Positions 4,936 to 52,582 of a DNA stretch of 64,000 bases are shown piece after piece. Every line of letters starts with the position of its first letter. The stretch's first letter is position 1. The DNA comes from Candidatus Flemingiibacterium sp. (lineage in GTDB: Bacteria > Bacillota > Clostridia > Oscillospirales > CAG-272): assembly GCA_045635785.1 (NCBI GenBank), contig JAZTWJ010000107.1, positions 3,497 through 67,496 on the forward strand, read 5' to 3'. The notes below the pieces were generated by a model that was not told the DNA's origin, made no database searches, and was given only the letters and a program-made list of their open reading frames with translations. The translations under genes and the position numbers were made by a program.

Positions 4936-5628
4936 TCATACCTGTAATTCCTCAATCGTCTTCAAAACCTCAAGATCCATTTGCTGTTCATGCGAATCAA
5001 GTCCGGCAGATGCCCGACCGCGAATGCGCGTTTGGGTGCCGTTTCGAACAAAGTTGAGCCATGAACGGTCCGCTTCGGTAGGAGCTGTACGAACGCGGGC
5101 GAGATTCAGCGCGCCAAGTCGAAGCTCCGCTTCTGTATATGTACGCCGAATGCCGTCAAAACGCGCGGCAATGATTTGATAATGCTTGTTATGCTCTCGC
5201 ACGACAAGCTCATCTAAAATTTGATAGCCATCCGCAAGATAGCGGCGCAGTACTGCCTGCATGGACATGGGCTGAAGAACGAGCAGACATTTTGAGGTGC
5301 GCGGATAGGGGGATGCATCGAGAATGGATGCGATCATTTCACCGCCCATGCCTGCAATGATGATATTATCGGGTGCAAAGGCTTCGATGCCGTCAAGTCC
5401 CGGTCGGCATGCGACGATGATTTTGTCCGCAAGCCCATGCGCGGCAACATTGACGCGCGCACGCTCACAAGGGCCCTCATTGATATCCGAAGCCAGCGCG
5501 CTCGGTGCACCGTTTTCCACTAAATAAATCGGTAAAAGGGCGTGATCGGTGCCAATATCCGCCACACTTCCCTTTTCCACCAGCGATGCCGCGGCGGAAA
5601 GTCTCGCGTCAAGTCGAAAATTTGTCAA
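4936..5628 (-). CDS. trmK: tRNA (adenine22-N1)-methyltransferase TrmK
   Basis: 230 aa with the SAM-MTase motif ADIGTDHALLPIYL. The trmK-nif3 adjacency matches Bacillus yqfN-yqfO. TTG start. Confidence 0.85.
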   Translation of the reverse strand: MTNFRLDARLSAAASLVEKGSVADIGTDHALLPIYLVENGAPSALASDINEGPCERARVNVAAHGLADKIIVACRPGLDGIEAFAPDNIIIAGMGGEMIASILDASPYPRTSKCLLVLQPMSMQAVLRRYLADGYQILDELVVREHNKHYQIIAARFDGIRRTYTEAELRLGALNLARVRTAPTEADRSWLNFVRNGTQTRIRGRASAGLDSHEQQMDLEVLKTIEELQV

Positions 5629-5667
5629 TGATAATCATCACTTTCGCATTTGCGAAAGCTTCCTTTC
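5629..5667 (-). promoter_or_regulatory. SD / anti-SD / SD leader hairpin in front of trmK
   Basis: Sense strand: GAAAGGaaGCTTTCGCaaatGCGAAAGtgatgattatcaTTG. Confidence 0.45.
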
Positions 5668-5714: not shown

Positions 5715-5915
5715 TTACTTGGATTCGAGGAAATCGTTGATTTTTTCGATCAACGCATCCGCATCGGTGCCATGCACCGCACAAGCCATTTCGATGGTTT
5801 CGCCGCGTGCGGAGGGACAGCCGAGGCAATGCATGCCGATTTCAAGGAAAAACTGTGCTGTTTCGCGATCGAAGTCAAGAACCTCACCGATAATAGAATC
5901 TTTTGTAACTTTCAT
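5715..5915 (-). CDS. DUF1858 / hybrid-cluster-protein-associated redox disulfide domain protein
   Basis: 66 aa with a CxxC motif (MHCLGCP); small single-domain protein of the DUF1858 type. Confidence 0.8.
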   Translation of the reverse strand: MKVTKDSIIGEVLDFDRETAQFFLEIGMHCLGCPSARGETIEMACAVHGTDADALIEKINDFLESK

Positions 5916-6011
5916 TTAATGACCATTGCTTTCACCGCAGTGAAAGCTTCCTTTCTCCCCCTCAGGGGCTTAATTTTTGTTGCAAAAGCTTGAACCTAAC
6001 AAAGTTCAAAC
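5916..6011 (-). promoter_or_regulatory. structured 5' UTR element (copy A of the conserved three-hairpin leader)
   Basis: Sense: GTTTGAACtttgttagGTTCAAGCTTTTGCAacaaaaattAAGCCCCtgagGGGGAGAAAGGaaGCTTTCACtgcgGTGAAAGCaatggtcattaaATG. Confidence 0.5.
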
Positions 6012-8130: not shown

Positions 8131-8856
8131 TTATCTGCGAAGCTGTTTTCCGCAGGCGAGAATGGATGAGCGTGCAAGACATTCCAGCGAATCCACAAAA
8201 AATTCGTCAAGATGACCTGATTTTTTGATCAGAGACAGTTCTGTACAGCCGAGGATCAGCCGTTCACAGCCAAGACTTCTCATGGCATCGGCGACGGCAT
8301 AAAACGACTGCAGATCGGGCGCGTTGCCCGATTTGATCTCGCCGTAGATGATCTGCATGATACGCCGCTGATCCGCTTCGGACGGCACCAAACATTCGAT
8401 GCCGTGCGATTGGCAGTACTTTTGATAGGTTTGCGAACGGACCGTTCCGTCCGTGGCGAGCAGTCCAAAGCGCTGTACCCCACAGCCCTTGAGGTATTTT
8501 ACCGATTCGTCGATGATATTGAGCATCGGCACAGGAACCGCCGCTTGCAGCTGATCATAAAAATAATGTGCCGTATTGCAGGGGATGGCGATCATATCCG
8601 CGCCAAAATCCACAAGGCGTTTTGCATCGGGAATCATGGCATCAAGTGGATCATCATCCGACTCGCCCACAATAAACGCAGTGCGATCGGGTGTCGTAGC
8701 ACGGCTGGAGATGACGATATCAAGGTGATCCTGGTCGCACGCCGCATCTGTCATCGATGTCAGCAGTTCGTAGAAATACACCGTAGACATGGGGCCGATG
8801 CCGCCCAGCACACCCAGCGTTTTATTCTTTTCCATAATATTTTTTGAATTTACCAT
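8131..8856 (-). CDS. aspartate racemase-type amino-acid racemase
   Basis: 241 aa. N-terminal GVLGGIGPMST and two catalytic Cys motifs (IPCNTAH, LGCTEL) typical of the Asp/Glu racemase family, aspartate racemase size. Alternative start at 8835. Confidence 0.8.
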   Translation of the reverse strand: MVNSKNIMEKNKTLGVLGGIGPMSTVYFYELLTSMTDAACDQDHLDIVISSRATTPDRTAFIVGESDDDPLDAMIPDAKRLVDFGADMIAIPCNTAHYFYDQLQAAVPVPMLNIIDESVKYLKGCGVQRFGLLATDGTVRSQTYQKYCQSHGIECLVPSEADQRRIMQIIYGEIKSGNAPDLQSFYAVADAMRSLGCERLILGCTELSLIKKSGHLDEFFVDSLECLARSSILACGKQLRR

Positions 8857-10054
8857 AATGATTATGCCCGTGCATTAAAAGAAATGCAGTCCTTTTAAAA
8901 TTGAAGAAAGTGTCGGGGCGATACCAAAGTGCCGCATGCGCCTTGCCTGCGCTTGCCAATTTCTTGGCGCGCGCGATATTTTCTTTATCACGGCAAAATC
9001 CGTAAACCACGCGCTTTGGAATGCTATGCCAAAAAATTTCCTCATCGCAGAAATAGGTCTCGCCGAGGTCTTTTTCCTCCACATGATCCTCTACGATATT
9101 TTGCGCCACATTGCAGCCTGCCGATGTGACGTAATGATTGGAGCGCCCAAGTCGCAGATTGATTTCGAATGTGCGGAAGCTTCCGTCACGGCTGTCGAAT
9201 TTGATGTCGAAATTCGAATAACCCACAAAGCCGATCTCTTCAAGATATGCCTTGAATTTTTCCATCAGCGGCTTATCCTTTTCCGTAATGATGGCGCAGT
9301 GATTGCCAAGTCCCTTTGGCGTATGCTCCTCTAAAAGCACATGCCCGAGGCACATCATCTTGACTTTTCCGTGTCTGTCCGAATAAGCGGTCAGCACGCG
9401 CATATTGGAGTCGTCGCCCGGGATCATATCCTGCAAAATGATCTTCTCCGGATAGCCCGAAGCGTATATACGGCGAATGATGATCTCCGCTTCTCCCTTG
9501 GTTGCGGCTGTGTAAACCTTTTTCATACCGTCAAAGGGATATTTCCAATAGATGGCGCTGGCGGAGGGCTTGATGATGACCGGATAGGAAAAACCAAGTG
9601 CGCTTTCATCCAGCACGTTTTGAAGATTTGTATCGGGCGTGATCACCGCCGTTTTGGGATACGGAATACCAAAGCGGTCACAATCCTCATAGAAGTTCGC
9701 TTTATATGCAAGTCTTTCAAACAGATCCGCGCCGATATAAGGCACGATATAGCGCGGACGCAGTTTTTCGCCATGGTGGATCAGCATTGCCGCATAGTCG
9801 TCGGTGCATCCGAATGCGATAAGTGTGGCATCCTGATGCGCCTTTGCAAAATCCAGCAGCGTTTGTACCATAACCTCCGGCTCATCCAGTTTTTCTACGG
9901 CGGTGAAGCGCAGGATACGGGTATAGCAGGATGCGCCGATGGCGTATCTGCCGAATGCCTGCGATTTTACACCGTACTTTTCATGAAAGGCGCGGGCAAC
10001 GCTGTAACAGTTGAGGTCCGCGCCGAGCAGCACGGGAATGATCGTATCTTTCAT
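8822..10054 (-). CDS. ATP-grasp carboxylate-amine ligase (D-aspartate ligase-like by context)
   Basis: 410 aa with ATP-grasp fold features (VIIKPSAS..., EINLRLGRSN). Its 3' end overlaps the racemase start. Confidence 0.65.
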   Translation of the reverse strand: MKDTIIPVLLGADLNCYSVARAFHEKYGVKSQAFGRYAIGASCYTRILRFTAVEKLDEPEVMVQTLLDFAKAHQDATLIAFGCTDDYAAMLIHHGEKLRPRYIVPYIGADLFERLAYKANFYEDCDRFGIPYPKTAVITPDTNLQNVLDESALGFSYPVIIKPSASAIYWKYPFDGMKKVYTAATKGEAEIIIRRIYASGYPEKIILQDMIPGDDSNMRVLTAYSDRHGKVKMMCLGHVLLEEHTPKGLGNHCAIITEKDKPLMEKFKAYLEEIGFVGYSNFDIKFDSRDGSFRTFEINLRLGRSNHYVTSAGCNVAQNIVEDHVEEKDLGETYFCDEEIFWHSIPKRVVYGFCRDKENIARAKKLASAGKAHAALWYRPDTFFNFKRTAFLLMHGHNHYGKFKKYYGKE

Positions 10055-10119
10055 TATATCGTTCCATTGCCCATACGGGCATCCTTATTTATGTTTTATA
10101 TGCGAGATATTTTGGCTCG

Positions 10120-12144: not shown

Positions 12145-12894
12145 CTACTCCTCGTCGGAAAATTTCATCAGCTTCACTTCTTTGTAACCGTCGATACCGG
12201 CTTTTTGCAGAGCACCGAAAATCCGATGCCGAAGCCCCTTGTTTTGGCGTTCCAAACTCACAAGAAGTTGCTTCATGCTTTCTCGCTCGGTATTTTTATC
12301 CGCAGGGCACGGCGATGTGATAATCGGCAGCGGATGACGATTGGCAAAATAGCGCACATCCTTCTCCTGTGCATATAAGAGCGGGCGTATCATCGTCAGA
12401 TTCTTTCTCGACAGATATGTCACAGGGGAGAAGGAACCGAGCCGTCCTTCGAAAAACAAATTCAGCATGAAAGTATCCACCACATCATCGAAGTGATGGC
12501 CAAGTGCCAGCTTATTGCAATTCTGCCGCTTGCACTCGTCATGCAAAGCACCGCGCCGCATTTTTGCACAAAGTCCGCACGGATTTTTCTCCTTGCGAAC
12601 ATCAAAGACAATACGCGCAATTTGTGTTTTTGTGACGATATACGGTACGTCCAACTCTTTGCAGAGCGCTTCCACTTCACGAAAGTCCACCCCTTCAAAG
12701 CCCATGTCCACCGTTATGGCGACAAGCTCGAATTTTTTCGGATAGAATCGCCTCAGCTCCGCCAGCGCAAACAACAGCGTCAAAGAATCCTTACCGCCCG
12801 AGATTCCGACACCGATACGGTCGCCGTCCTCGATCATGTTGTAATCATCCACCGCACGTCTTGTAAATGAGAGGATGCGTTTGATTTCTTTCAT
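12145..12894 (-). CDS. ttcA: PP-loop ATPase, TtcA-like tRNA 2-thiocytidine biosynthesis family
   Basis: 249 aa. SGGKDS PP-loop plus Cys motifs (NPCGLC, SPCP). Confidence 0.82.
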   Translation of the reverse strand: MKEIKRILSFTRRAVDDYNMIEDGDRIGVGISGGKDSLTLLFALAELRRFYPKKFELVAITVDMGFEGVDFREVEALCKELDVPYIVTKTQIARIVFDVRKEKNPCGLCAKMRRGALHDECKRQNCNKLALGHHFDDVVDTFMLNLFFEGRLGSFSPVTYLSRKNLTMIRPLLYAQEKDVRYFANRHPLPIITSPCPADKNTERESMKQLLVSLERQNKGLRHRIFGALQKAGIDGYKEVKLMKFSDEE

Positions 12895-12933
12895 AATCTA
12901 TTCAAGCCTTTGTCTGACAAAGGCTCCCTTTCT
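12895..12933 (-). promoter_or_regulatory. SD / anti-SD / SD leader hairpin in front of ttcA
   Basis: Sense: AGAAAGGGaGCCTTTGtcagaCAAAGGCttgaatagattATG. Same layout as the other copies, but with a different stem sequence. Confidence 0.45.
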
Positions 12934-13021
12934 AAAAGCAAGTGATATTAAACCGCTTCATAAAAGCGGCGGGGCAAGCATATCATAAAATGAATACATA
13001 ACAGCGTTTGCGGCTTTACTT

Positions 13022-13108
13022 TGGTCAAAAACCACGATTTTGCCGTGCAAATCAAGCCCAAAGGGGCAGAAAGGTAGCTTTCGCCCGAGCGAAAGCCATG
13101 GTTATTCT
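13022..13108 (+). promoter_or_regulatory. structured 5' leader (copy D of the conserved leader)
   Basis: TGGTcaaaaACCAcgaTTTTGCcgtgcaaatcAAGCCCaaaGGGGcAGAAAGGtaGCTTTCGCccgaGCGAAAGCcatggttattctATG. Confidence 0.45.
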
Positions 13109-13669
13109 ATGCCGAAAGTTTTTATTGATCAGGGACACAATCCCGTAAATCCCAACGCGGGCGCGGAGGGAAACGGACTGCGTGAGCAGGACATCACCTA
13201 CCGTATCGGCATCCTTCTCGCGGAGATATTAAACAACAATCCGAATTTTGAGGCTCGCACATCAAGAAATTCTCCCACCGAGCAGATTGGCACGTCAAAA
13301 TCCTCGTCTCTCGCCACCCGTGTATCCGAAGCCAATGCGTGGGATGCGGATATTTTCCTCAGCCTGCACACAAATGCCTCTGCGAATCCCACCGCCACGG
13401 GAGTGGAATCCTTTTCCTATGCCAGAGGAACCAATGGCTTTCGTCTTGCCGAGGACGTGGCGGAAAATCTCGCGCTCATCACGGGACTTCCGAATCGGGG
13501 CACATTTCCCCGCCCCTCTCTGTACGTTCTCCGCCGCACCGAAATGCCGGCGGCGCTCATTGAAATGGGCTTCATCACAAATCCCGGTGATGCCGCACTC
13601 ATGGAGAACCAGCCGGATCTGTTTGCCCTTGGCATTTATAACGGAATTCTCGAATATTTCGCATTGTAG
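13109..13669 (+). CDS. N-acetylmuramoyl-L-alanine amidase (Amidase_3 family, CwlD-like size)
   Basis: FIDQGHN, SLHTNA and EMGFITN motifs. Start moved to ATG 13109; the track ORF from 13040 would read through the leader hairpin. Confidence 0.82.
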   Translation: MPKVFIDQGHNPVNPNAGAEGNGLREQDITYRIGILLAEILNNNPNFEARTSRNSPTEQIGTSKSSSLATRVSEANAWDADIFLSLHTNASANPTATGVESFSYARGTNGFRLAEDVAENLALITGLPNRGTFPRPSLYVLRRTEMPAALIEMGFITNPGDAALMENQPDLFALGIYNGILEYFAL

Positions 13670-15358: not shown

Positions 15359-15421
15359 CTTTGCGGAGCTTTCTTCAGAAAGCGACCGTTTCCTCTTTGC
15401 GGAGCTTTCTTCAGAAAGCGC
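15359..15421. repeat. two copies of a 27-nt unit (36-nt period), each carrying a GCTTTC-ttca-GAAAGC hairpin
   Basis: TCTTTGCGGAGCTTTCTTCAGAAAGCG occurs at 15359-15385 and 15395-15421. The second copy is followed by CTCCTTTTTT (terminator-like). Confidence 0.8.
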
Positions 15422-40856: not shown

Positions 40857-40934
40857 GGCATTACATAAGCGATAACGAGCTTTTTTCTGCCTCGCGCACT
40901 GTCTAATTTGAAAACATATTCAAGGAGAAACACG

Positions 40935-42008
40935 ATGCAAAAATTGACTTCCAGAGAGCGCATATTACGTGCGATCCGTCATCAGGAAATCGACCGTATC
41001 CCGATGGTTGACTCCGCTTGGAGAGGTACCATCGAGCGTTGGAGACGCGAAGGCCTTCCTGCCGGCACCAATTGGGAAGATTATTTTGGATACGATAAGG
41101 TTGTCCGCATTTTCCCCGACACTTCCCCTCGCTTTGAGAAAAAGGTTTTGGAAGAAACCGACCGCTATCAGATCGTAACCACCTCGTGGGGTATGACACA
41201 GAAGAAATTCTTTGAGCTTGACTCCACGCCCGAGCCCCTCGGCTCCTACTACTCCTCGTCCGATAAGTGGGAGGAGTGCAAGGCGCGCATTCTCACCGAT
41301 TATGAAGACCGTATTCCGTGGGACCACATCAAGAAGAACTATGCATATTGGAAAGAAAACGGCTATCTGCTGCAGTTAGGCTTCTTCTTCGGCTTTGACA
41401 TCACCCACTCCCATCTCGTTGGAACGGAAAACGTTCTGATCGGTATGTATGAGGAGCCGGAATGGATCGAGGACATCTTCGATACCTGTCTGGGCGTCGC
41501 GCTGAGACTTTCCGAAAAGCTGCTTGATGCAGGCTACGAGTTTGACGGCATCTTCTGGTATGACGATATGGGCTACAAGGGCTCCACCTTCTTCTCCCCC
41601 TCGCTGTACCGCTCGCTGCTCAAGCCCTACCACAAGCGCGCTGTTGATTGGGCGCATGCTCGCGGCATGATCGCTGAGCTTCATTCCTGCGGCTTCATTG
41701 AGCCTCTGATGGATGACCTTATCGACATCGGCGTTGATATGCTCAACCCCCTTGAGGTTAAGGCAGGCATGGATCCCTTCAAGATGAAGGAGAAGTACGG
41801 CGACAAGATCGCATTCCGCGGCGGTATCAATGCTCAGCTGTGGGATAAGCCCGATGAAGTGCTTGACGAGATCTCGCGCCTCATCCCCGTACTGAAGGAA
41901 GGCGGCGGATATGTATTCGCTTCTGACCACTCCATCCCCAACTGCGTAACCTTCGATACCATGAAGAAGATCGTCGCGCTGGTTAACGAGCTCGGCAAGT
42001 ACAACTGA
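40935..42008 (+). CDS. URO-D/MtaA-like putative methyltransferase, paralogue 2 (HSCG class)
   Basis: 357 aa. AAGGAGA 7 nt upstream of ATG 40935. LHSCG ... SDHSIPNC. Confidence 0.78.
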   Translation: MQKLTSRERILRAIRHQEIDRIPMVDSAWRGTIERWRREGLPAGTNWEDYFGYDKVVRIFPDTSPRFEKKVLEETDRYQIVTTSWGMTQKKFFELDSTPEPLGSYYSSSDKWEECKARILTDYEDRIPWDHIKKNYAYWKENGYLLQLGFFFGFDITHSHLVGTENVLIGMYEEPEWIEDIFDTCLGVALRLSEKLLDAGYEFDGIFWYDDMGYKGSTFFSPSLYRSLLKPYHKRAVDWAHARGMIAELHSCGFIEPLMDDLIDIGVDMLNPLEVKAGMDPFKMKEKYGDKIAFRGGINAQLWDKPDEVLDEISRLIPVLKEGGGYVFASDHSIPNCVTFDTMKKIVALVNELGKYN

Positions 42009-42250
42009 TTTGATATCATCATAAATCTATAACCGATTGCCAAACGCTGTTTTGCAATCGAACCGCTGCAGGCGGAGCCATCGGGCGATTTGTATACCAA
42101 ACGCCCGATGGACACCTGTTGCATTTTCTACAGTGTCTTTTCCGGCGATCAATCTGCCCGAAAAGACTCTTTCATTACAACCGTAATTTCACATCTGTTA
42201 TCGCTTCTTTTGCGGTAACAAATGACGACAAACAATCGATAGGGATTATT

Positions 42251-42808
42251 ATGGAAAATCAAAAACTTTTTGATACCTTAAAAGACATTGCAGCGGAGCT
42301 TGGAGCCTTCCGTTCCGCAATTCTTCCCGCAAGCGAAGTGGTGACAGACCGCGTCTTCCGCGAGCTCTGCAAAAACAATTCCTGCGGTGTTTATGGCAAA
42401 TGCTACACCTGTCCACCCGATGTGGGCGAAATTGACGATCTGATCGCCGATTTGTACAAGAGACAGTATATGTTTTTCTATCAGACCGTCACCGAGCTGG
42501 AGGACAGCTTCGATATTGAAGGTATGCAGCTTGCCAAAAAGAAGCATGTCAAGCTTGCCCTCGCACTGCGCGAGCGTTGCAATGCACTCGAGCTGAAAAA
42601 TGCACTGCATCTGCAAGGCGGCGGTTGCGGCGTATGCAAGGTCTGCGCCAAGAGAACAGACGAGCCCTGCCGTTTCCCCGATAAGGCGATTTCTTCGCTG
42701 GAAGCATACGGCATTTATGTCTCCAAAACTGCCGAAAAAACGGACATGAAATATATTAACGGTCAGGACACCGTTACATATTTCGGTGCGGTTTTCTTCG
42801 ATTTTTGA
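42251..42808 (+). CDS. DUF2284-type predicted metal-binding protein
   Basis: 185 aa. Cys-rich motifs CGVYGKCYTCPP and GGGCGVCKVC. Start chosen at ATG 42251; the track extension upstream is not convincing. Confidence 0.72.
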   Translation: MENQKLFDTLKDIAAELGAFRSAILPASEVVTDRVFRELCKNNSCGVYGKCYTCPPDVGEIDDLIADLYKRQYMFFYQTVTELEDSFDIEGMQLAKKKHVKLALALRERCNALELKNALHLQGGGCGVCKVCAKRTDEPCRFPDKAISSLEAYGIYVSKTAEKTDMKYINGQDTVTYFGAVFFDF

Positions 42809-42837
42809 GATAACTTGAAATTACGAAAGGGACTATC

Positions 42838-43845
42838 ATGAGAAAGCCTGATTTTGATAATCTGCTGATGGTGTTGAACCGTGAAAAGCCAAGCAGAAAG
42901 ACGCTCTTTGAATTTGCCATTTCACCTAAAATGGTAGAGCATATCACATCCCCTGCTCCCAGATCCAACGGGGATCTCGCTTATCGGCAATGGTTTGCGG
43001 ATGGCGTTGCAAAGCTCGGATATGATTTCGTTTGTTTTCATCCCACGAAATTCTATTTCAAGCGCAAATCATCCGAATCGCACGAAAAGAAAAGCAGCCG
43101 TTCGCTCAACGAAACTGCGACCATCACCGACTGGGATTCGTTCGAACAATACAAATGGAACGAGCCGGAGGACTTCCCTTGCTCTCTTGACGGCTTGAAG
43201 CTTCCGGATGGCATGAAGGTGATCCTTTTTTCATCAGACGGCGTACTTGAAAATACCATTGGTCTTTTTGGATATGACAATCTCTGCTATGCCTTGTATG
43301 AAGACGAAGAGCTGGTAAGCACTGTATTCCAGAACGTCGGTGAGCGTCTCTACCGTTATTATGCAGAGTATGTGCATGACGAAAGAGTCGGCGCCCTTCT
43401 CATAAACGATGACCTCGGCTTCAATACGCAGACGCTCCTTTCGCCTGAGCTGCTCAGAAAATATGTATTCCCTTGGCATAAGCGTTTTGCTGAGCTGGCG
43501 CATCGCGAGGGTAAGCCCGCGCTGCTTCACTCCTGCGGCAATTTGAGCAAGGTATACGATGATATCATCGATGTACAGAAATTCGACGGCAAGCATTCTT
43601 ATGAGGATGGCATTCAGCCCGTCGAGGAGGCATATAAGATGCTGCACAAGAGAATTGCGGTTCTCGGTGGCATTGACGTAGACTTCCTCTGCCGTCGCAC
43701 GCCCGAGGAAATTGAAAAACGTTGCCGTGAAATGCTCGATTTAGCAGAAGCGGACGGCGGATATGCACTCGGAACGGGTAACAGCGTTCCCACATATATG
43801 CCGGTCGAAAATTATTTCGCAATGCTGAAAGCAATCGAAGACTAA
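42838..43845 (+). CDS. URO-D/MtaA-like putative methyltransferase, paralogue 3 (HSCG class)
   Basis: 335 aa. GAAAGGGA 7 nt upstream. LLHSCGN. Confidence 0.78.
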   Translation: MRKPDFDNLLMVLNREKPSRKTLFEFAISPKMVEHITSPAPRSNGDLAYRQWFADGVAKLGYDFVCFHPTKFYFKRKSSESHEKKSSRSLNETATITDWDSFEQYKWNEPEDFPCSLDGLKLPDGMKVILFSSDGVLENTIGLFGYDNLCYALYEDEELVSTVFQNVGERLYRYYAEYVHDERVGALLINDDLGFNTQTLLSPELLRKYVFPWHKRFAELAHREGKPALLHSCGNLSKVYDDIIDVQKFDGKHSYEDGIQPVEEAYKMLHKRIAVLGGIDVDFLCRRTPEEIEKRCREMLDLAEADGGYALGTGNSVPTYMPVENYFAMLKAIED

Positions 43846-43864
43846 TTCATAATCATATCGAAAT

Positions 43865-43908
43865 GGGAGGGCCCTCGCGGTGCAAACCGCGAGGGCATGA
43901 TAACCAAA
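43865..43908 (+). promoter_or_regulatory. SD / anti-SD / SD leader hairpin in front of paralogue 4
   Basis: GGGAGG-GCCCTCGCGG-tgcaaa-CCGCGAGGGC-atgataaccaaa-ATG, with a perfect 10-bp stem. Confidence 0.5.
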
Positions 43909-45033
43909 ATGACAAACAGAGAACGCGCCATGAATATTTTGCACTATCGGGATGTGGATCGCATGCCGGCAGTGCATTTTGGCTATTGGAAAGAGCTTCT
44001 TGAAGAATGGGCTGTGCAGGGAAAGATCCCACAGCACATTGCGGATAACGCAAAAACATCCCATGCGGCGGAGGTTGAGCTGGACAAGCTGATCGGATGG
44101 GATTTCGGTTGGAGCAATACCTTCAGCGCAAGGAGCGGACTTCGTCCGGCCTTTGAACGCAAGGTGCTGGAAACTTTGCCCGACGGTACCCAGAGAATCC
44201 AGAACGGCAGCGGCTTGATCGAAAGGATCCGTCCCGGTGTGGTTTCCATTCCGTCGGAGGACGACTATCTTCTCAAGGACAGAGAGGCTTTTGAGACACT
44301 GTATCGTCCAAAAATGCAGTTTTCGTCCGATCGCGTCGATACGGAATATTTCAAAGCTTTTAACGAGAATGTTTATAATAAGACGGATTATCCCATTGCC
44401 ATCTTCTTAGGAAGCGTGCTCGGAACCATCCGCAACATGGTCTCCGTCGTTGGCATGAGCTATTTGGTTTACGATGAGGATGAAGATCTGTTTGCCGATG
44501 TAGTGGATACCTTCGCCGAGATGCAATGCAAATGCGTGGAGGAAATTCTGAAAACCGGCGCTAAATTCGACTACGGTCACTATTGGGAGGATGTCTGCTT
44601 CAAGAACGGTCCGCTGATCGCTCCCGAGTTGTTCGACGAGCTCTGCGCGAGACATTACAAGCGCAGAAACGATCTCTGCCGCAAATACGGCATTGATATC
44701 ATTTCCCTCGACTGTGACGGTGTGACCGATAAGCTTTTGCCCACATGGTACGAGAACGGCGTTAACACCATGTTTCCCATCGAGGTTGGCGTATGGGGCG
44801 ATCAGTTTGAAGCTGCCAGAGAGAAATTCGGCAAGGGCATGCTTGGCGTCGGCGGCATGGACAAGACCGCATTCCGCAAGGATAAGGCGGCTGTGGACGC
44901 AGAACTTCGCCGCATGGAGCGATTGGCATCCATGGGTGGCTTTATTCCCTGCCCCGATCACAGACTGATGCCCGGCTCCAAGTTTGAGCTAGTTCAGTAT
45001 TACGCAGAAGAAATCAAAAAAATCAAGCTTTGA
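43909..45033 (+). CDS. URO-D/MtaA-like putative methyltransferase, paralogue 4 (DCDG class)
   Basis: N-terminus MTNRERAMNILHYRDVDRMP aligns with paralogue 2 (TSRERILRAIRHQEIDRIP). An in-frame alternative ATG at 43897 abuts the hairpin. Confidence 0.78.
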   Translation: MTNRERAMNILHYRDVDRMPAVHFGYWKELLEEWAVQGKIPQHIADNAKTSHAAEVELDKLIGWDFGWSNTFSARSGLRPAFERKVLETLPDGTQRIQNGSGLIERIRPGVVSIPSEDDYLLKDREAFETLYRPKMQFSSDRVDTEYFKAFNENVYNKTDYPIAIFLGSVLGTIRNMVSVVGMSYLVYDEDEDLFADVVDTFAEMQCKCVEEILKTGAKFDYGHYWEDVCFKNGPLIAPELFDELCARHYKRRNDLCRKYGIDIISLDCDGVTDKLLPTWYENGVNTMFPIEVGVWGDQFEAAREKFGKGMLGVGGMDKTAFRKDKAAVDAELRRMERLASMGGFIPCPDHRLMPGSKFELVQYYAEEIKKIKL

Positions 45034-46574
45034 TCATAGCATCAAAGCACCGGAGAGGAGAAACTACCATTTCTGCTTCTATTTTAATTACAGTTAACGG
45101 AGAAAAGCGCACGGTCGAGGCAGGCACGCGGCTTTCGGAGCTATTTTTGACAGAGCTTCCCTGCGGCGCGCACGGCAAATGCGGCAAGTGCAAGGTTCGG
45201 GCAAGCGGCGAACTCTCGCCGCTGACAAGCGCCGAGCAAAAATTGTTGGACGCGAAGGAGATCTCTGACGGCATCCGCCTCGCCTGCTGCACGGACATTC
45301 TCGGCGAATGCACGGTGGAAACAGCGTTCGAAAAAAGCAAGGACGACGCGGTTTTGACGGCAGGCAGAGCCAAGAATATCACGCTGAACGCATCCTTCAA
45401 GCAGATCGGTGCCGCCATAGACATCGGCACGACCACCCTTGCCATCAGACTGCTTTCCCCCTTAGGGGAGATCCTCGCGGAGGGCGGTATGGCAAATCCC
45501 CAAGCATCCTTCGGCGCAGATGTTATTTCCCGCATGGAATCCCATCTGGCGGGCAATGGTGCGGAACTGGCTGATACCATTCGAAGTGCCATCGACCGCA
45601 TGCTTGCGGATCTTTGCAAGGGCATCGGACGGGATCCTTCGGAAATTGACGGGTTGGTCATCACAGGCAATACGGTCATGCTTTATCTGCTCACAAATAC
45701 CACACCCGAGCCACTCTCCCATGCGCCCTTCACGCTCACCCGCGATTTTGGCGAAGCCATGTCTGCCAAGACGCTCGGCTTATCATCTGCCGCGCCTGAC
45801 GCAGAGGTCTATCTTGCCCCCTGCATCTCCGCATTTGTAGGCGGCGATACGATCTGCGCGATCCTTTGCGGCGAGCTTGTCGGCAAGGAAAATGCAATGC
45901 TGGTTGACATCGGCACAAACGGCGAAATGGCGCTTTACTGCAAAAATTCGCTGTACACCTGCTCCACCGCCGCAGGCCCTGCCTTTGAAGGCGTTGGCAT
46001 TTCCATGGGTATGCGCGGCGCACCGGGTGCCATCGACAAGGTTTACTTGACCGAAAACGGCATCTCCGCCCATGTTATCGGCGAAACAAAGCCCGTCGGC
46101 ATCTGCGGAAGCGGCATTGTGGATGCCATGGCAGCACTGCTCGAAAACGGAACGGTGGATGAAACCGGCTTCATTGAGGAAGACGAAGTGATGATTCTGC
46201 CGCCGGTCGCACTCACGGGGCAGGATATTCGCATGATACAGCTTGCAAAGTCTGCCATTTACTCGGGTCTAAAAACGCTGATGCATGCGGCAAATATCGA
46301 CGAGAGTGAGGTCACAACGCTCATGATCGCAGGCGGATTCGGAAGCTATCTGAACACCGTCAGCGCGGGCAGGATCGGCTTGCTTCCGAAATCTTTGGTC
46401 AGCAAGGTTGCCGTTATCGGCAATGCGGCGCTGGGCGGCGCAGAGCTTCTGCTTTTGAACACCGCCATGCGAAAGGATGCCTATGCGCTGGCAAAATCGG
46501 CGCAATCCATTGATTTGGCGAGCGATCCCTATTTCGCAGATACCTACATCGAAGCGATGATGTTTGAAGAATAA
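45030..46574 (+). CDS. corrinoid reductive activase (RACE/RamA-like: [2Fe-2S] ferredoxin domain + ASKHA ATPase)
   Basis: CGAHGKCGKC...LACC ferredoxin-type Cys pattern, then DIGTTT and DIGTNGE ASKHA phosphate motifs. Start uncertain (TTG 45030 or ATT 45069). Confidence 0.85.
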   Translation: MIIASKHRRGETTISASILITVNGEKRTVEAGTRLSELFLTELPCGAHGKCGKCKVRASGELSPLTSAEQKLLDAKEISDGIRLACCTDILGECTVETAFEKSKDDAVLTAGRAKNITLNASFKQIGAAIDIGTTTLAIRLLSPLGEILAEGGMANPQASFGADVISRMESHLAGNGAELADTIRSAIDRMLADLCKGIGRDPSEIDGLVITGNTVMLYLLTNTTPEPLSHAPFTLTRDFGEAMSAKTLGLSSAAPDAEVYLAPCISAFVGGDTICAILCGELVGKENAMLVDIGTNGEMALYCKNSLYTCSTAAGPAFEGVGISMGMRGAPGAIDKVYLTENGISAHVIGETKPVGICGSGIVDAMAALLENGTVDETGFIEEDEVMILPPVALTGQDIRMIQLAKSAIYSGLKTLMHAANIDESEVTTLMIAGGFGSYLNTVSAGRIGLLPKSLVSKVAVIGNAALGGAELLLLNTAMRKDAYALAKSAQSIDLASDPYFADTYIEAMMFEE

Positions 46575-46597
46575 ACTTAAGAATTGTATTCTTTTTT

Positions 46598-46636
46598 TAA
46601 GAAAGCTTTCGCCGATGCGAAAGTCATGGTGATTTT
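46598..46636 (+). promoter_or_regulatory. anti-SD / SD leader hairpin in front of paralogue 5
   Basis: AAGAAAGCTTTCGC-cgat-GCGAAAGtcatggtgattttATG. Confidence 0.45.
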
Positions 46637-47695
46637 ATGATTTCACTTCAAAAAGAGACTCTCGCTCTGCTGGAGGACATTGAAAACCGTATCGACCCCG
46701 AAACCGAGGAAGATTTTCGCAATCAATGGAGGGGCTTCTTATACGGCGAATTCAAAGGCGATCTATTCCACCCCGAACGCAAGAAATTGTCCCCACCCAA
46801 ATACGAGCCTCCCTTTGTTCCCATCAACGATGCCCTTAGCAGTGTTGAGCTGATGCTCAGAGCACAGCTTTCCTCGGTTTCGGTCGCGCTCAATACCCCC
46901 CATCGGAATCTTTGCATGCGCGCGAATTACGGAACGGGTATTATGACATCGCTGTTTGGCGCAGAGATTTTCGTGATGCCCTATGCCACCAATACGCTTC
47001 CGACCACCCGTCCCATCAACGACACTGAATGGATCCGCCGCATGGTGGATAAGGGCGAGCCGAATCTGATGGGTGGCTTTGGTAGCGATGTGTTTGCATT
47101 TGGCGAGCTTTGTGCGGAAGTATTCGAAAAATATCCGCGCATTCGCTCCTATGTATCGGTCTATCACCCCGATTTACAGGGTGCGCTCGATATTTGCGAA
47201 ATGCTGTGGGGAGCCGAAATGTTCTATGCCATGTATGACGAGCCGGAGCTTGTCCATAGTGCCCTGCAGCTTTCCGCCGACACGTTCACATCCTTTATGC
47301 ACAAATGGCATCGAATCTTCCCTCGCAACGATGAGATGAATGTCCATTGGGAGTTTCTCTGCCACCGCGGCTCCATTTTGATACGCGACGACAGCGCGAT
47401 GAATCTCACGCCCGAATTTTACAAGGAATACGCGGCTCCCTATGATGCGCTCCTTTTAGAACGCTTTGGCGGCGGCGCGGTGCATTTCTGCGGACGCGGA
47501 GATCATTATATCGAAACCATGTCCGAAATCCCCTATCTTTACGGCATCAATCTCTCGCAACCCTCATACAACGATATGGAAAAGATCTATCGCAATACCG
47601 TTGACAAGGGTATTCCGATCTTTAATTTGAGTGCGCGTCAAGCAAAAGCGGACATCGGCCGCGAGGGCGGTTTCCATCATCTTGTCAGCATCTGA
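46637..47695 (+). CDS. URO-D/MtaA-like family protein, paralogue 5 (HFCG class, divergent)
   Basis: 352 aa. AVHFCGRGDH. Last gene of the plus-strand operon. Confidence 0.72.
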   Translation: MISLQKETLALLEDIENRIDPETEEDFRNQWRGFLYGEFKGDLFHPERKKLSPPKYEPPFVPINDALSSVELMLRAQLSSVSVALNTPHRNLCMRANYGTGIMTSLFGAEIFVMPYATNTLPTTRPINDTEWIRRMVDKGEPNLMGGFGSDVFAFGELCAEVFEKYPRIRSYVSVYHPDLQGALDICEMLWGAEMFYAMYDEPELVHSALQLSADTFTSFMHKWHRIFPRNDEMNVHWEFLCHRGSILIRDDSAMNLTPEFYKEYAAPYDALLLERFGGGAVHFCGRGDHYIETMSEIPYLYGINLSQPSYNDMEKIYRNTVDKGIPIFNLSARQAKADIGREGGFHHLVSI

Positions 47696-47715
47696 TTCCT
47701 GTTTTAATACAAAAA

Positions 47716-50249: not shown

Positions 50250-52484
50250 TTATCGTGTTTCCCTAAGCTGTTTTAACAATGTGATAGCTGCATCCGCATC
50301 CGATTGTGCAAGTCGGCGAAACTTCGCTGCGGTTTCGGCAATTGATGCACGGAGGCCCTCTTGATCGGTCATAATATCGTCTATCTTCTGACGCAGATTA
50401 CCTTCCTTGATGGTGCGAATATCCAGCGTTTTTGCTTCCTGCCCGATATAGGAAAGAAATGCATCAATTTTCGGGTCATAGGAAATGCCTGTCATCGGCA
50501 CACCCATGGCTGCGGCATAAATCAGCGTATGCAGTCTTGTTCCCACCACAAACTCTGCGTCTGCAATCAGACCGCAAAGTTCGGATGCGGAAAGTCCGCT
50601 CACCACAATACCCACGCCGCATTTTTCGCGCAATGTCAACGAGACCGCCATGTCACGGCTTGCATGCATGGGCACGATTATAGGCAACAGCCCATAGTTG
50701 CTTGCCACCAAAGCAAGATCGGCAGCGATCACGTCCACCGTCTTCATGCTTGATTTTTCGCCGAAATTATTGCCATCCTTGACACTGACAATGAAGTATT
50801 TACCGTTAATTTTTTCCCGTGTGCGGATGTGTTCGCACCAGCTCGCGTCGGATGCTCGGATGAGAAAAGCAGGGTCTGCGGTAACATGAAGCGCCGTCCT
50901 ACAACCAATCTCTCGCGCGGTTTTCTCTGAAGATGGCTCACGGAAGCTGACATAATCCGCACTTTCCATGACAGCCACCGCTTTTTCGCGGCCGCTTTTA
51001 GAAACAAGCGGCCCGAGTCCGTTGGCATACAGCATGGTTTTCAATCCGCGTTTTTTTGCCATGCGCAGAATGGTGAGATAATAAAACAGGCTTTTTTTAC
51101 TGGTGCCATCCTGCAGAAGACTGCCGCCGCCCGAAATGAGCAGCTTCGCATGCCGCATTTCAGTGGCGATGGCAAACAGATTGAATCGATGGATAGCACG
51201 GACGCCGACGGCTCGAGTCAGCCTGCGAGGATTCTTTGCCAACACCGTAATGCGCGTATCGGGCTGACGCTCTCTTATGCCGCTCACAATGGCATCAAGC
51301 AGCGAATCATCGCCGATATTGTGAAAGCCATAGTAGCCGGAAATAATGACATCTCCGCGCTTATAATGACGCCGCGGTTTCAGCCTTTCATAAACGGCGA
51401 TATGATCATCCGCCATTTTCGCAACGGAATAGCTTTCCATTACCACTTGTCTGCCAAGTCTGCCGCAGGCTGCGCGAGCATCCTCCGACATATGGAATAT
51501 TTCAAGCAGATCGCGCTCCACGTCCGCCGTTTCGGCAAGACGGGAACCTCTAAAACAGAAGTTGGTGGCACGGGCAAAAGGAAGAATTTCCTCTCTTACC
51601 ACGCCACTATAGCCAAGAGGGCCCACCAGAACCGTGGGGCGTTCGCTGCTCATTGCTTCCAACGCCGCTCGAGAAACGCCCACAAAGGCATCACAGGTCG
51701 CCACAAGCTCCGCAATATCGGTGCGCGGGCCCGTCAGACGTATAACCTCTCGTCCGATGGCGGCATTTGCCTCCGACGCCTTTGCTGAAAGCGCCGCAAA
51801 GGCATTGCCACCGCCAACGATGAGAATTTCCAGATTGGGAATTTCCGCCGCAAGCTTCACCGCCGCTTCGCAAAGAAGCAATGCGGGACGAACGGTGGAA
51901 TCATCGATGCGGCTGACGGACAGCACGCGAAATTTGCCATCCTCCAGCGCAAGCTCTGCCTTCAAAGCTGCATTGTCGATGGATTTATGGAAACGCACCG
52001 TGTCAATGCCATTGATGGTCACTGTGATGGTGTCGTTCGGCACACCATACTTGTCTATTAGATACTGTTTGATATCGCAGCTTACCGCAAACGTATGCTC
52101 GCCCCAATCGGACAGCCTCGCCCACAGCGCGTTTACGGAGAATACAAAATGGGTAGAAGTTACAAAACGAAAGCCCAATTTTTTTGCCAGAATGCCACAT
52201 ACAAAAGCAGGAATGCGCGAATGCGCATGCACAATGTCAAAATTCTCCGCTTTGATGAACGCACCCAGTTTATTAAGACTTTCCATCACCGCAACGGGCT
52301 TTTTGGTATGCAGCGGCACCTTGAAGTGCTTGACGCCCGACTGCTCCAGCGCATTCACATAAACGCCGCCGTTGGATGCAACGGTAACATCATGCCCTCT
52401 CGCCGCCAGCTCTCTTGCCAATTCCACTACATGCGTCTCCGCGCCGCCGATGACCATCCACATATGGCAGATTAGTATTTTCAT
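50250..52484 (-). CDS. fusion protein: GT4 glycosyltransferase + polysaccharide pyruvyl transferase (CsaB-like)
   Basis: 744 aa. N-terminal GT4 part (GGAETHVVELAREL) and C-terminal CsaB-type part (ISGYYGFHNIGDDSLL...LISGGGSLLQD). Confidence 0.82.
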   Translation of the reverse strand: MKILICHMWMVIGGAETHVVELARELAARGHDVTVASNGGVYVNALEQSGVKHFKVPLHTKKPVAVMESLNKLGAFIKAENFDIVHAHSRIPAFVCGILAKKLGFRFVTSTHFVFSVNALWARLSDWGEHTFAVSCDIKQYLIDKYGVPNDTITVTINGIDTVRFHKSIDNAALKAELALEDGKFRVLSVSRIDDSTVRPALLLCEAAVKLAAEIPNLEILIVGGGNAFAALSAKASEANAAIGREVIRLTGPRTDIAELVATCDAFVGVSRAALEAMSSERPTVLVGPLGYSGVVREEILPFARATNFCFRGSRLAETADVERDLLEIFHMSEDARAACGRLGRQVVMESYSVAKMADDHIAVYERLKPRRHYKRGDVIISGYYGFHNIGDDSLLDAIVSGIRERQPDTRITVLAKNPRRLTRAVGVRAIHRFNLFAIATEMRHAKLLISGGGSLLQDGTSKKSLFYYLTILRMAKKRGLKTMLYANGLGPLVSKSGREKAVAVMESADYVSFREPSSEKTAREIGCRTALHVTADPAFLIRASDASWCEHIRTREKINGKYFIVSVKDGNNFGEKSSMKTVDVIAADLALVASNYGLLPIIVPMHASRDMAVSLTLREKCGVGIVVSGLSASELCGLIADAEFVVGTRLHTLIYAAAMGVPMTGISYDPKIDAFLSYIGQEAKTLDIRTIKEGNLRQKIDDIMTDQEGLRASIAETAAKFRRLAQSDADAAITLLKQLRETR

Positions 52485-52582
52485 GGAATACCATGACCTT
52501 CGCCGCAGCGAAAGCCGCCTTTCTCCCCTATTGGGGCTTGGTTTTCATGCAAAAGCATCCGTTTGAAACCGGATCTTCAAAC
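52485..52582 (-). promoter_or_regulatory. structured 5' UTR element (copy B of the conserved three-hairpin leader)
   Basis: Sense: GTTTGAAgatccggTTTCAAACggatGCTTTTGCAtgaaaaccAAGCCCCaataGGGGAGAAAGGcgGCTTTCGCtgcgGCGAAGGtcatggtattccATG. Confidence 0.5.

Follow-up and report, generated by a model that had tools for sequence, protein, structure and literature searches.

A modular interspersed repeat in the Shine-Dalgarno-to-start spacer as a candidate portable ribosome-binding site in gut Clostridia

Seven translation-initiation leaders of unrelated genes in a 64,000-nt stretch of Candidatus Flemingiibacterium sp. (contig JAZTWJ010000107.1; the whole stretch is referred to here as the window) were described in an earlier note as sharing one layout, namely a Shine-Dalgarno (SD)-like purine block, a hairpin with an SD-like 3' arm, and a start codon shortly downstream. 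These leaders are very probably copies of the 3' module of an interspersed repeat that is modular, present in many copies and inserted in the spacer between SD and start codon. As the best explanation of the whole we favour, with fair confidence, a portable, context-insulated ribosome-binding site (RBS) carried by this interspersed repeat, and not a sensor. The seven had been taken for independent regulatory leaders; their recurrence comes instead from one repeat family found across many genomes.

Read directly from the sequence, all seven leaders are present as quoted and at the start codons assigned to them, and the identities given to their genes agree with Pfam (TrmK, DUF1858, PP-loop TtcA-like, Amidase_3, two of the URO-D family and a GT4/pyruvyl-transferase fusion). 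The recurring layout is real and far from chance, as judged from a shuffle test and from model matches that all end at the starts of long open reading frames (ORFs). The palindromic core GCTTTCRC-N4-GYGAAAG occurs at 5 window sites, which amount to 11 matches when both strands are counted; 0.87 were expected, and the count was not reached in any of 100 shuffles. A covariance model (R1; 59 positions, built from 73 copies) that was run on the window with filters off recovered exactly the seven quoted leaders and an eighth at 10049-10100(-), each of the eight ending at the start codon of a long ORF. The earlier note was therefore right to see a structured, non-random initiation region, and right about the A-T to G-C swap between the copies at 5915 and 52484 and about stem pairing preserved through a few compensatory changes. 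Its claim that the 3' arm has exactly the spacing of unstructured leaders stood in part: the arm lies 10-14 nt from the start in the window copies (12 nt in five), which is inside the range of ordinary leaders, but these span 6-14 nt from GG to start and most commonly have 7-8.

Across genomes, the core of about 59 nt recurs in the leaders of over 100 unrelated genes, spread over many Oscillospiraceae-like metagenome-assembled genomes (MAGs). It consists of AGAAAGGA, an 8-bp hairpin GCUUUCGC-N3-4-GCGAAAGC (hairpin C) and (A)UGGUNAU, with AUG following 12-13 nt 3' of the hairpin. A pattern scan with GCTTTCNCNNNNGNGAAAGNNATGRT over one genome per bacterial species returned at least 111 stretches; among the matches listed, about 75 lie in Clostridia MAGs and represent the same element, and about 36 are chance matches scattered over unrelated phyla. 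Flanks that lie outside the search pattern are conserved too: AGAAAGGA abutting the stem, AAUUCC further 5', (A)UGGUNAU(A)A, and a second ATG 12±1 nt after the first. The records of repeat-bearing Clostridia are labelled Candidatus Flemingiibacterium, Acutalibacter sp. HAN004, Ruminococcus, Oscillospiraceae, 'Lachnospiraceae' and the cultured Massiliimalia massiliensis, and the repeat is also found in human-gut and animal-gut contigs. Strain Marseille-P2963 of M. massiliensis and the JAZNUF and CAZXAU MAGs are among the carriers. Acutalibacter sp. HAN004 (JAFLRP) holds at least 13 pattern matches, with further model-only matches in the same loci, and contigs of similar coverage from single samples carry from 4 (ERZ857757) to 14 (ERZ1643251) copies with near-identical A and B modules (described below) in front of different genes. 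Sequence variants are genome-specific and common to the copies of one genome, and a copy at pheT is common to three Ruminococcus species representatives (L027, L065, L078), indicating stable inheritance.

An ORF of at least 50 codons begins at the right place after 72 of the 75 copies, and the 72 downstream proteins represent 112 Pfam families, mostly housekeeping (pheT, purA, gyrA, dnaE, ispG, Hsp33 and the sporulation gene yqfD among them). Because these downstream genes are functionally unrelated, a metabolite-specific leader is ruled out. A known RNA family was rejected as well: searched at Rfam gathering level, the window and 18 loci with good copies yielded nothing but tRNAs, and a full copy searched at E<=10 had unrelated families as its best sub-threshold matches (E>=0.5). 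Phage or plasmid origin was rejected on zero matches to the repeat in IMG/VR, INPHARED and PLSDB. A full-text literature search found no account of such an element, which does not prove that none exists. We rate it a new form of a known repeat type, that is, an interspersed repeat with the SD-to-start spacer as its niche and an RBS as its cargo. Two of the 72 proteins are IstB_IS21 ATPases, the repeat thus standing also before a gene inside IS21-type insertion sequences.

Outside the window the core is usually the 3' end of a modular element of 122-173 nt with two further hairpin modules, ordered as hairpin A, module B, AAUUCC, SD block, hairpin C and ATGGT tail. Hairpin A occurs as GTCTGAAAAAT...ATTTTTCAGAC, GCGTGAAAAAT... 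or GTTTGAAAGAT..., and module B comprises CGTTTTGTGGCTTTCGCC, a variable stem-loop and GGCGATTTTGCTnnGCAAAACCAGCCCC. RNAalifold on 16 diverse copies gave 39 consensus pairs; the 12 that show compensatory double changes belong without exception to A and B. The sequence of hairpin C hardly varies: in a model-derived alignment that was not stem-selected, 98.3% of cells pair and double changes are found in 3 pairs (4 cells). A metagenome scan anchored on module B alone yielded 60 stretches, about 47 of them true copies, nearly all of which have the core next. The modules combine as in BOX-type repeats, since several loci depart from the standard order: L130 has modules A and B followed by AAAGGAGG-tt-ATGGTT-ATG without hairpin C, in L156 and L175 an unrelated 11-bp hairpin (GTTTTTGCGGC/GCCGCAAAAAC) stands between the SD block and the last 11 nt before the ATG, and L131 is a 26-nt deletion derivative. 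As in other interspersed repeats, then, the modules are met with in several combinations, including the core alone (window), A, B and core (other genomes), A and B with a plain SD (L130, L163) and extra hairpins nested inside module B (L128, L141, L170, L173). The variants hold the SD block, a hairpin and a spacer of 11-14 nt even where the 3' arm is not SD-like. Half of hairpin A is duplicated at 4512-4560 of L082; this duplication and the nested hairpins suggest nested insertion or slippage within the repeat.

Several other identities for the element were considered and set aside. For a small protein or N-terminal extension, or a conserved leader peptide starting at TTG, GTG or CTG in hairpin A, the possible frames are uniform relative to the main ATG (14/16/16 for frames 0/1/2) and the stop positions are scattered, and both were rejected. 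The motif ATGGTNAT as an extended -10 promoter of a leaderless mRNA has, as reasoned from the sequence, an unsuitable spacing to the ATG, and hairpin C has no downstream U tract that would make it an intrinsic terminator. A DNA operator for a dimeric repressor is disfavoured by the compensatory stem variants and by a distance that is fixed to the ATG and not to a promoter.

The eight copies of the window are listed below with their R1 scores; a degenerate module B accompanies the amidase copy only, the other copies being the core alone.

5626..5667, minus strand: core copy in the trmK leader (GAAAGG 5662-5667, 5' arm 5652-5659, 3' arm 5641-5647, TTG start 5626-5628; 49.3 bits).
5913..5956, minus strand: core copy in the DUF1858 leader (AGAAAGG 5950-5956, ATG 5913-5915; 60.6 bits).
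5940-5947 and 5928-5935, minus strand: 5' arm (GCTTTCAC) and 3' arm (GTGAAAGC) of the DUF1858 copy's hairpin.
10052..10088, minus strand: eighth copy, absent from the earlier list, in the leader of the 410-aa ORF 8822-10054 (orf410; 17.1 bits, E 0.56).
10082-10088, 10077-10080, 10069-10072 and 10052-10054, minus strand: ATAAGGA, the arms GCCC and GGGC, and the ATG of the eighth copy, which has a short stem and reads ATAAGGA-t-GCCC-gtat-GGGC-a-ATGG-N9-ATG.
12892..12933, minus strand: variant core copy in the ttcA leader, without an upstream ATG (AGAAAGGG 12926-12933, ATG 12892-12894; 31.9 bits).
12917-12925 and 12905-12913, minus strand: 5' arm (AGCCTTTGT) and 3' arm (ACAAAGGCT) of the ttcA copy's hairpin.
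13002..13067, plus strand: degenerate module B of the long form in the amidase leader (module B proper 13002-13059), cagcgtttgcggctttac...gattttgccgtgcaaatcaagccc, by comparison with the module B consensus.
Within 13002..13067, plus strand: small hairpin GCCC-aaa-GGGGC, 3' of the degenerate module B and abutting the amidase SD block.
13068..13111, plus strand: core copy in the Amidase_3 leader (AGAAAGG 13068-13074, ATG 13109-13111; 52.2 bits).
13077-13084, 13085-13088 and 13089-13096, plus strand: 5' arm, loop and 3' arm of the amidase copy's hairpin, followed by AUGGU at 13098-13102.
43865..43911, plus strand: variant core copy in a URO-D family leader (GGGAGG 43865-43870, then the hairpin, ATGAT, ATG 43909-43911; 19.2 bits).
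43871-43881 and 43886-43896, plus strand: arms (GCCCTCGCGGT/ACCGCGAGGGC) of the 11-bp hairpin of the 43865 copy.
46599..46639, plus strand: core copy in a second URO-D family leader (AAGAAAG fused to the 5' arm 46605-46612, 3' arm 46617-46623, ATGGT, ATG 46637-46639; 46.5 bits).
52482..52524, minus strand: core copy in the GT4/pyruvyl-transferase leader (AGAAAGG 52518-52524, ATGGT, ATG 52482-52484; 47.6 bits).
52508-52515 and 52497-52503, minus strand: 5' arm and 3' arm (GCGAAGG) of the GT4 copy's hairpin; a CCCC-aata-GGGG hairpin precedes this copy.

Insertion is seen at ispG, in an empty/filled pair with 98% identical IspG proteins, where about 147 nt have entered a 5-nt SD-to-ATG spacer. 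The empty allele (L179, L180 and L181) reads aagaggaAAAACATGAGC, or with more 5' context ...cgtctaagaaaaagaggaAAAACATGAGC, and the filled allele (L123) reads aagagga[~147 nt]AAACATGAGC, in full ...cgtctaagaaaaagagga[GTTTGAAAG...GCGAAAGCCATGGTCAT]AAACATGAGC. No target duplication is visible in this pair, whose junction falls within a run of A and whose strains also have other base differences. Terminal inverted repeats were not found, the 5' end (GTTTGAAAG...) not being complementary to the 3' end (...ATGGTCAT(AAA)). A species with 82% identical IspG has a core-only ispG leader (L178 9936-10000) with the G.U-rich stem GCTTTCGC-tct-GCGGGAG, the GGGAG of its 3' arm lying 14 nt before the ATG, and the orthologous ispG leader is thereby seen in three states: empty, long form and decayed core. 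At tsaB, the element is present in L178 and absent from L179.

The sequence to the left of the repeat points to the same site of entry. The 14 nt immediately 5' of hairpin A bind the anti-SD with a mean of -8.3 kcal/mol over 57 non-redundant long copies. An SD-like flank (<= -6 kcal/mol) precedes 84% of these copies, against 11% in two control windows, so that a native SD is left stranded upstream. Relatives of the window organism with 87-89% identical TtcA, one of which (JAZNMQ, labelled Flemingiibacterium) bears the repeat elsewhere, have plain leaders at ttcA, amidase, orf410, trmK and DUF1858, for example GGAGGTG-N5-ATG, AAGGAGG-N7-ATG and, at the orf410 orthologues, ATAAAGGA-N7-ATG without a hairpin. 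The ttcA-amidase spacer measures 57-60 nt in two relatives against 214 nt in the window, and R1 gave no match in about 60 kb of the relatives' sequence. TrmK homologues, at most 69% identical, are too divergent to provide a clean empty site for this canonical window copy. Overall, the repeat fills the few nucleotides between SD and start codon, always in one orientation and with its end 1-4 nt short of the ATG, and some orthologous sites have it while others lack it.

The repeat has the defining features of none of the specific families with which it was compared; it is partly standby- or split-RBS-like in function and BOX/Correia/ERIC-like in its spread. Like a miniature inverted-repeat transposable element, it is short, non-coding, multi-copy and insertion-polymorphic. 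With BOX, RUP and SPRITE of Streptococcus pneumoniae, Correia of Neisseria, ERIC/REP-BIME and bcr1 of Bacillus cereus it shares a length of 60-170 nt, an intergenic, multi-copy and putatively co-transcribed nature, hairpin modules in varying combinations, presence or absence between strains and genome-specific variants. Repeats of the BOX/RUP/Correia/ERIC type are scattered in 5' and 3' untranslated regions, however, whereas the Clostridia repeat is confined to the SD-to-start spacer in sense orientation only and brings its own SD; no sequence relationship to them was detected (no Rfam match), and Correia and RUP have terminal inverted repeats or target duplication, neither of which is evident here. 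Subterminal hairpins (A at the 5' end and C at 9-12 nt from the 3' end), strict orientation and the lack of terminal inverted repeats and of an evident target duplication recall the palindrome-associated elements derived from IS200/IS605. Those have a fixed tetra- or pentanucleotide left target, unlike the variable SD-like purine block found here at 1-6 nt (the last four nucleotides of left flanks being, for instance, ggaa, agaa, aaaa, agga or gcat), and the two end hairpins of the Clostridia repeat differ from each other, unlike theirs. Synthetic insulated RBS parts such as bicistronic designs and RiboJ likewise place a standardised, context-independent initiation region before unrelated genes; the Clostridia repeat differs in being natural and mobile and in having no conserved leader cistron, as the frame and stop of its upstream ORF vary.

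Within this setting we offer, as a speculative and rather doubtful extension, that the repeat is a non-autonomous mobile element that homes into the SD-to-start nucleotides, perhaps through pairing of its own anti-SD-like CUUUC with the target SD, and replaces each native RBS with one standard cassette. The cassette's hairpin would then be an intramolecular copy of the SD:anti-SD duplex, placed where that duplex normally sits on the 30S subunit.

For the route by which ribosomes use the inserted core, we considered predicted structure and duplex energies, the latter against a Firmicute-type 16S tail that we take to be GAUCACCUCCUUUCU. Hairpin C has no mismatches and a predicted stability of about -12.7 kcal/mol. 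For most copies, folded together with 60 nt of upstream context, and for the consensus core, the predicted minimum free energy (MFE) structure leaves the upstream SD block single-stranded, often between two hairpins; this block binds the anti-SD at -8.4 to -11.3 kcal/mol, compared with -4.1 to -4.6 for the 3' arm and -2.7 to -5.1 for the UGGU region. Because insertion at essential genes would move their native SD as far as about 150 nt away, the repeat would have to bring a working RBS. We posit that AGAAAGGA, an 8-nt complement of the 16S 3' end lying single-stranded between two hairpins, would serve as the docking site of the 30S subunit, and that the GCUUUCGC/GCGAAAGC hairpin would be constitutively folded, forming a protruding side arm at a three-way junction. 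The effective SD-to-AUG distance would then come to about 14 nt, inside the natural 6-14 nt range of the window. The stem, 2-3 nt before a conserved upstream AUG (ATG1), would block initiation there, and the hairpin would also shield the initiation site from upstream sequence; if it were melted, its 3' arm could act as a second, weaker SD at about equal distance. Modelled energies and geometry tip the balance modestly towards this docking on the upstream block beside a folded hairpin.

A number of observations weigh against these readings. As regards mobility, the 5' and 3' limits of the ispG insertion are ambiguous within the A run, terminal inverted repeats and a clear target duplication are both lacking, and no transposase or partner gene was found linked to the repeat, although no search aimed at TnpA was made. 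The stem of hairpin C is conserved well beyond the needs of pairing, which young copies or recognition by a protein (e.g. a transposase) could explain. As regards translation, most variants have SD-like, purine-rich 3' arms (CAAAGGC, CGAGGGC, GCGGGAG, GCGAAGG) that stand at a canonical distance of 12-13 nt from the AUG, as one would expect of an SD in use. The effective spacing of about 14 nt comes towards the upper end of the working range, and the choice that the ribosome would make among three SD-like segments is deduced from energies and geometry alone.

The earlier note had instead proposed a toggle of the kind seen in RNA thermometers and riboswitch platforms, with the 3' arm as the functional SD, the 5' arm sequestering it and the upstream block acting as anti-anti-SD, a reading that we consider very improbable. 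Several observations speak for it: the CUUUC of the 5' arm equals part of the 16S tail, the GAAAG of the 3' arm lies 12-13 nt from the AUG, the upstream block and 5' arm can form a 5-bp hairpin, and the URO-D copy at 43865-43911 shows a joint change of its upstream block (GGGAGG) and of the two arms (CCCTC/GAGGG). A toggle calls for two comparably stable exclusive structures, however, and the alternative hairpin is predicted at -4.3 kcal/mol against -12.7 for hairpin C. Folding at several temperatures, as the note had recommended, left the 3' arm of the seven quoted copies 84-98% paired from 25 to 65 C (probability of being unpaired 0.02-0.16), and this arm binds the anti-SD about half as strongly as the upstream block and is not SD-like at all in some members (GGGC; GCCGCAAAAAC). 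Nor is there an aptamer, six of the eight window copies having no conserved upstream domain, or a functional theme, since the 112 families of the 72 downstream proteins include essential housekeeping functions and show no association with heat shock, cold shock or virulence. ROSE and fourU thermometers and riboswitch platforms do pair an SD-like purine tract with anti-SD-like pyrimidines just 5' of the start; unlike ROSE and fourU, the Clostridia stem is perfect and stable above 65 C, and a second, stronger SD is exposed upstream. Also unlikely, if less so than the toggle, is a standby site at which the upstream block only tethers the 30S subunit until ribosome-assisted opening of the hairpin lets the anti-SD shift to the 3' arm and puts the AUG in the P site. 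Standby binding beside stable RBS hairpins is established for the MS2 coat and tisB mRNAs, whose single-stranded docking region beside a stable structure is matched in most predicted MFE structures of the repeat; the upstream block is strong and accessible and the 3' arm of most variants is suitably placed, but the shift would exchange pairings worth about -10 kcal/mol (upstream block) and -12.7 kcal/mol (hairpin) for two worth about -4.3 kcal/mol each, and members with GGGC or GCCGCAAAAAC as 3' arm could not use it. A split RBS of the T4 gene 25/38 type, with ATG1 (cATGG) as the true start and some four residues (MVIx) added, is about as improbable as the toggle. In both systems a stable hairpin shortens the effective distance between AUG and a distant SD, the folded hairpin would leave the upstream block about 2-3 nt plus the helix end from ATG1, and in about two-thirds of copies ATG1 shares the frame of the main ATG, 12 nt away. 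Yet of the seven window copies that possess an ATG1, six have it out of frame, as does a whole subfamily with offset 13; ATG1 is replaced (ATA, ACG) or absent in copies found without requiring it, the native ATG is kept in every copy, and a stable stem 2-3 nt upstream should keep ATG1 from being placed in the P site. The T4 hairpin, moreover, brings the SD to about 5 nt from the AUG of single genes, whereas the repeated Clostridia cassette leaves 12-13 unpaired nt, beyond the canonical 5-9 nt.

The remaining alternatives concern recognition of the repeat by other factors. It is possible, though we think it less than probable, that the hairpins and the (A)TGGTNAT end are mainly DNA-level mobility signals, the hairpins being read on single-stranded DNA by an HUH-type or other transposase acting in trans, with the SD block alone mattering for translation. 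Hairpins at both ends, strict orientation and the absence of terminal inverted repeats and obvious target duplication would fit such signals, as would the excess conservation of the stem, the variants common to all copies of one genome, and the ATGGT kept in L130, a copy that lacks hairpin C; against them stand the missing 4-5-nt target of IS200/IS605 type at the left end, the lack of a linked transposase (with the limit on that search given above), and two features that look like constraints of translation, namely the constant distance of 12-13 nt between hairpin and AUG and the arms' purine/pyrimidine polarity. This DNA-level reading is compatible with the portable RBS and does not exclude it. 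More improbable is an RNA-binding protein or small RNA that binds the core in trans and co-regulates the repeat-bearing genes as a regulon made by the spread of the repeat. Such a regulator could explain why stem and flanks are so highly conserved in primary sequence between genes and between species, with genome-specific variants, but no candidate partner came to light, the genes have no function in common, and a variable loop and tolerated stem replacements argue against sequence-specific recognition of the hairpin.

Two further sites to which the earlier note had extended the layout, as a permuted version before glnN and as the same hairpin core without a start codon, do carry hairpins, but R1 gave no match at either and they share only a 6-bp GCTTTC/GAAAGC stem with the core. 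The first, at 2871-2888, is GCGCTTTC-taaa-GAAAGCGC, 29 nt upstream of the ordinary SD of glnN; the second, at 15359-15421 between convergent genes, consists of two tandem 32-nt units, each with a GCTTTC-ttca-GAAAGC hairpin, which on the opposite strand look like an SD-like block and hairpin with no gene attached. A similar hairpin, GCTTTCTT-tc-AAGAAAGC, is found in the amidase leader of the relative L115 (about 9830-9850). With the form GC(G)CTTTCT-nn-AGAAAGCG and a CC-rich tail, these three look like a second, related hairpin repeat.

Two genes of a cluster at 40900-47700 bear the repeat core. This cluster holds three genes of the URO-D family (MtaA/CmuA-like methyltransferases) and a RACo corrinoid-activation gene (Fer2, Raco_middle and RACo_C_ter), which suggests a corrinoid-dependent methyl-transfer system. 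A loosely core-like leader, AAAGGA-ct-GCATT-tctttt-AATGC-acGGGCATAATcatt-ATG, precedes the longest form of ORF 8131-8856(-); it lies at 8857-8895(-), where ORF 8822-10054, the next one upstream, has its 3' end, and ORF 8131-8856 probably has its true start further downstream.

The repeat can mislead start-codon prediction. Since TrmK homologues of 231-238 aa cover 99% of a 230-aa form, the repeat-associated TTG start of trmK (4936-5628, minus strand) seems to have been missed by automatic annotation, the public protein (P0241, 100% identical) having 209 aa and being 21 codons short of the ORF from TTG 5628. Mechanical ORF calls, for their part, extend the amidase (13040-13669, plus strand) to TTG 13040 and the URO-D gene (43897-45033, plus strand) to the in-frame ATG 43897, which is ATG1 of the element.

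Copies of the repeat core stand at 8 of roughly 55 genes in the window, and elsewhere at the essential genes ispG, pheT, gyrA and dnaE. If our reading is correct, initiation at a sizeable fraction of genes in abundant, uncultured gut Clostridia would be driven by a mobile, standardised cassette and not by the genes' own RBS, and this would be the first known case of a repeat family specialised for the SD-to-start spacer, raising the question of how that target is found. It would also offer a naturally evolved, context-insulated RBS design, and the natural empty and filled alleles make its effect on translation directly testable. Should the homing of a standard cassette also hold true, the spacer would constitute a new ecological niche for a bacterial repeat, occupied by a natural standard RBS part that rewires initiation at several percent of genes in the clade.

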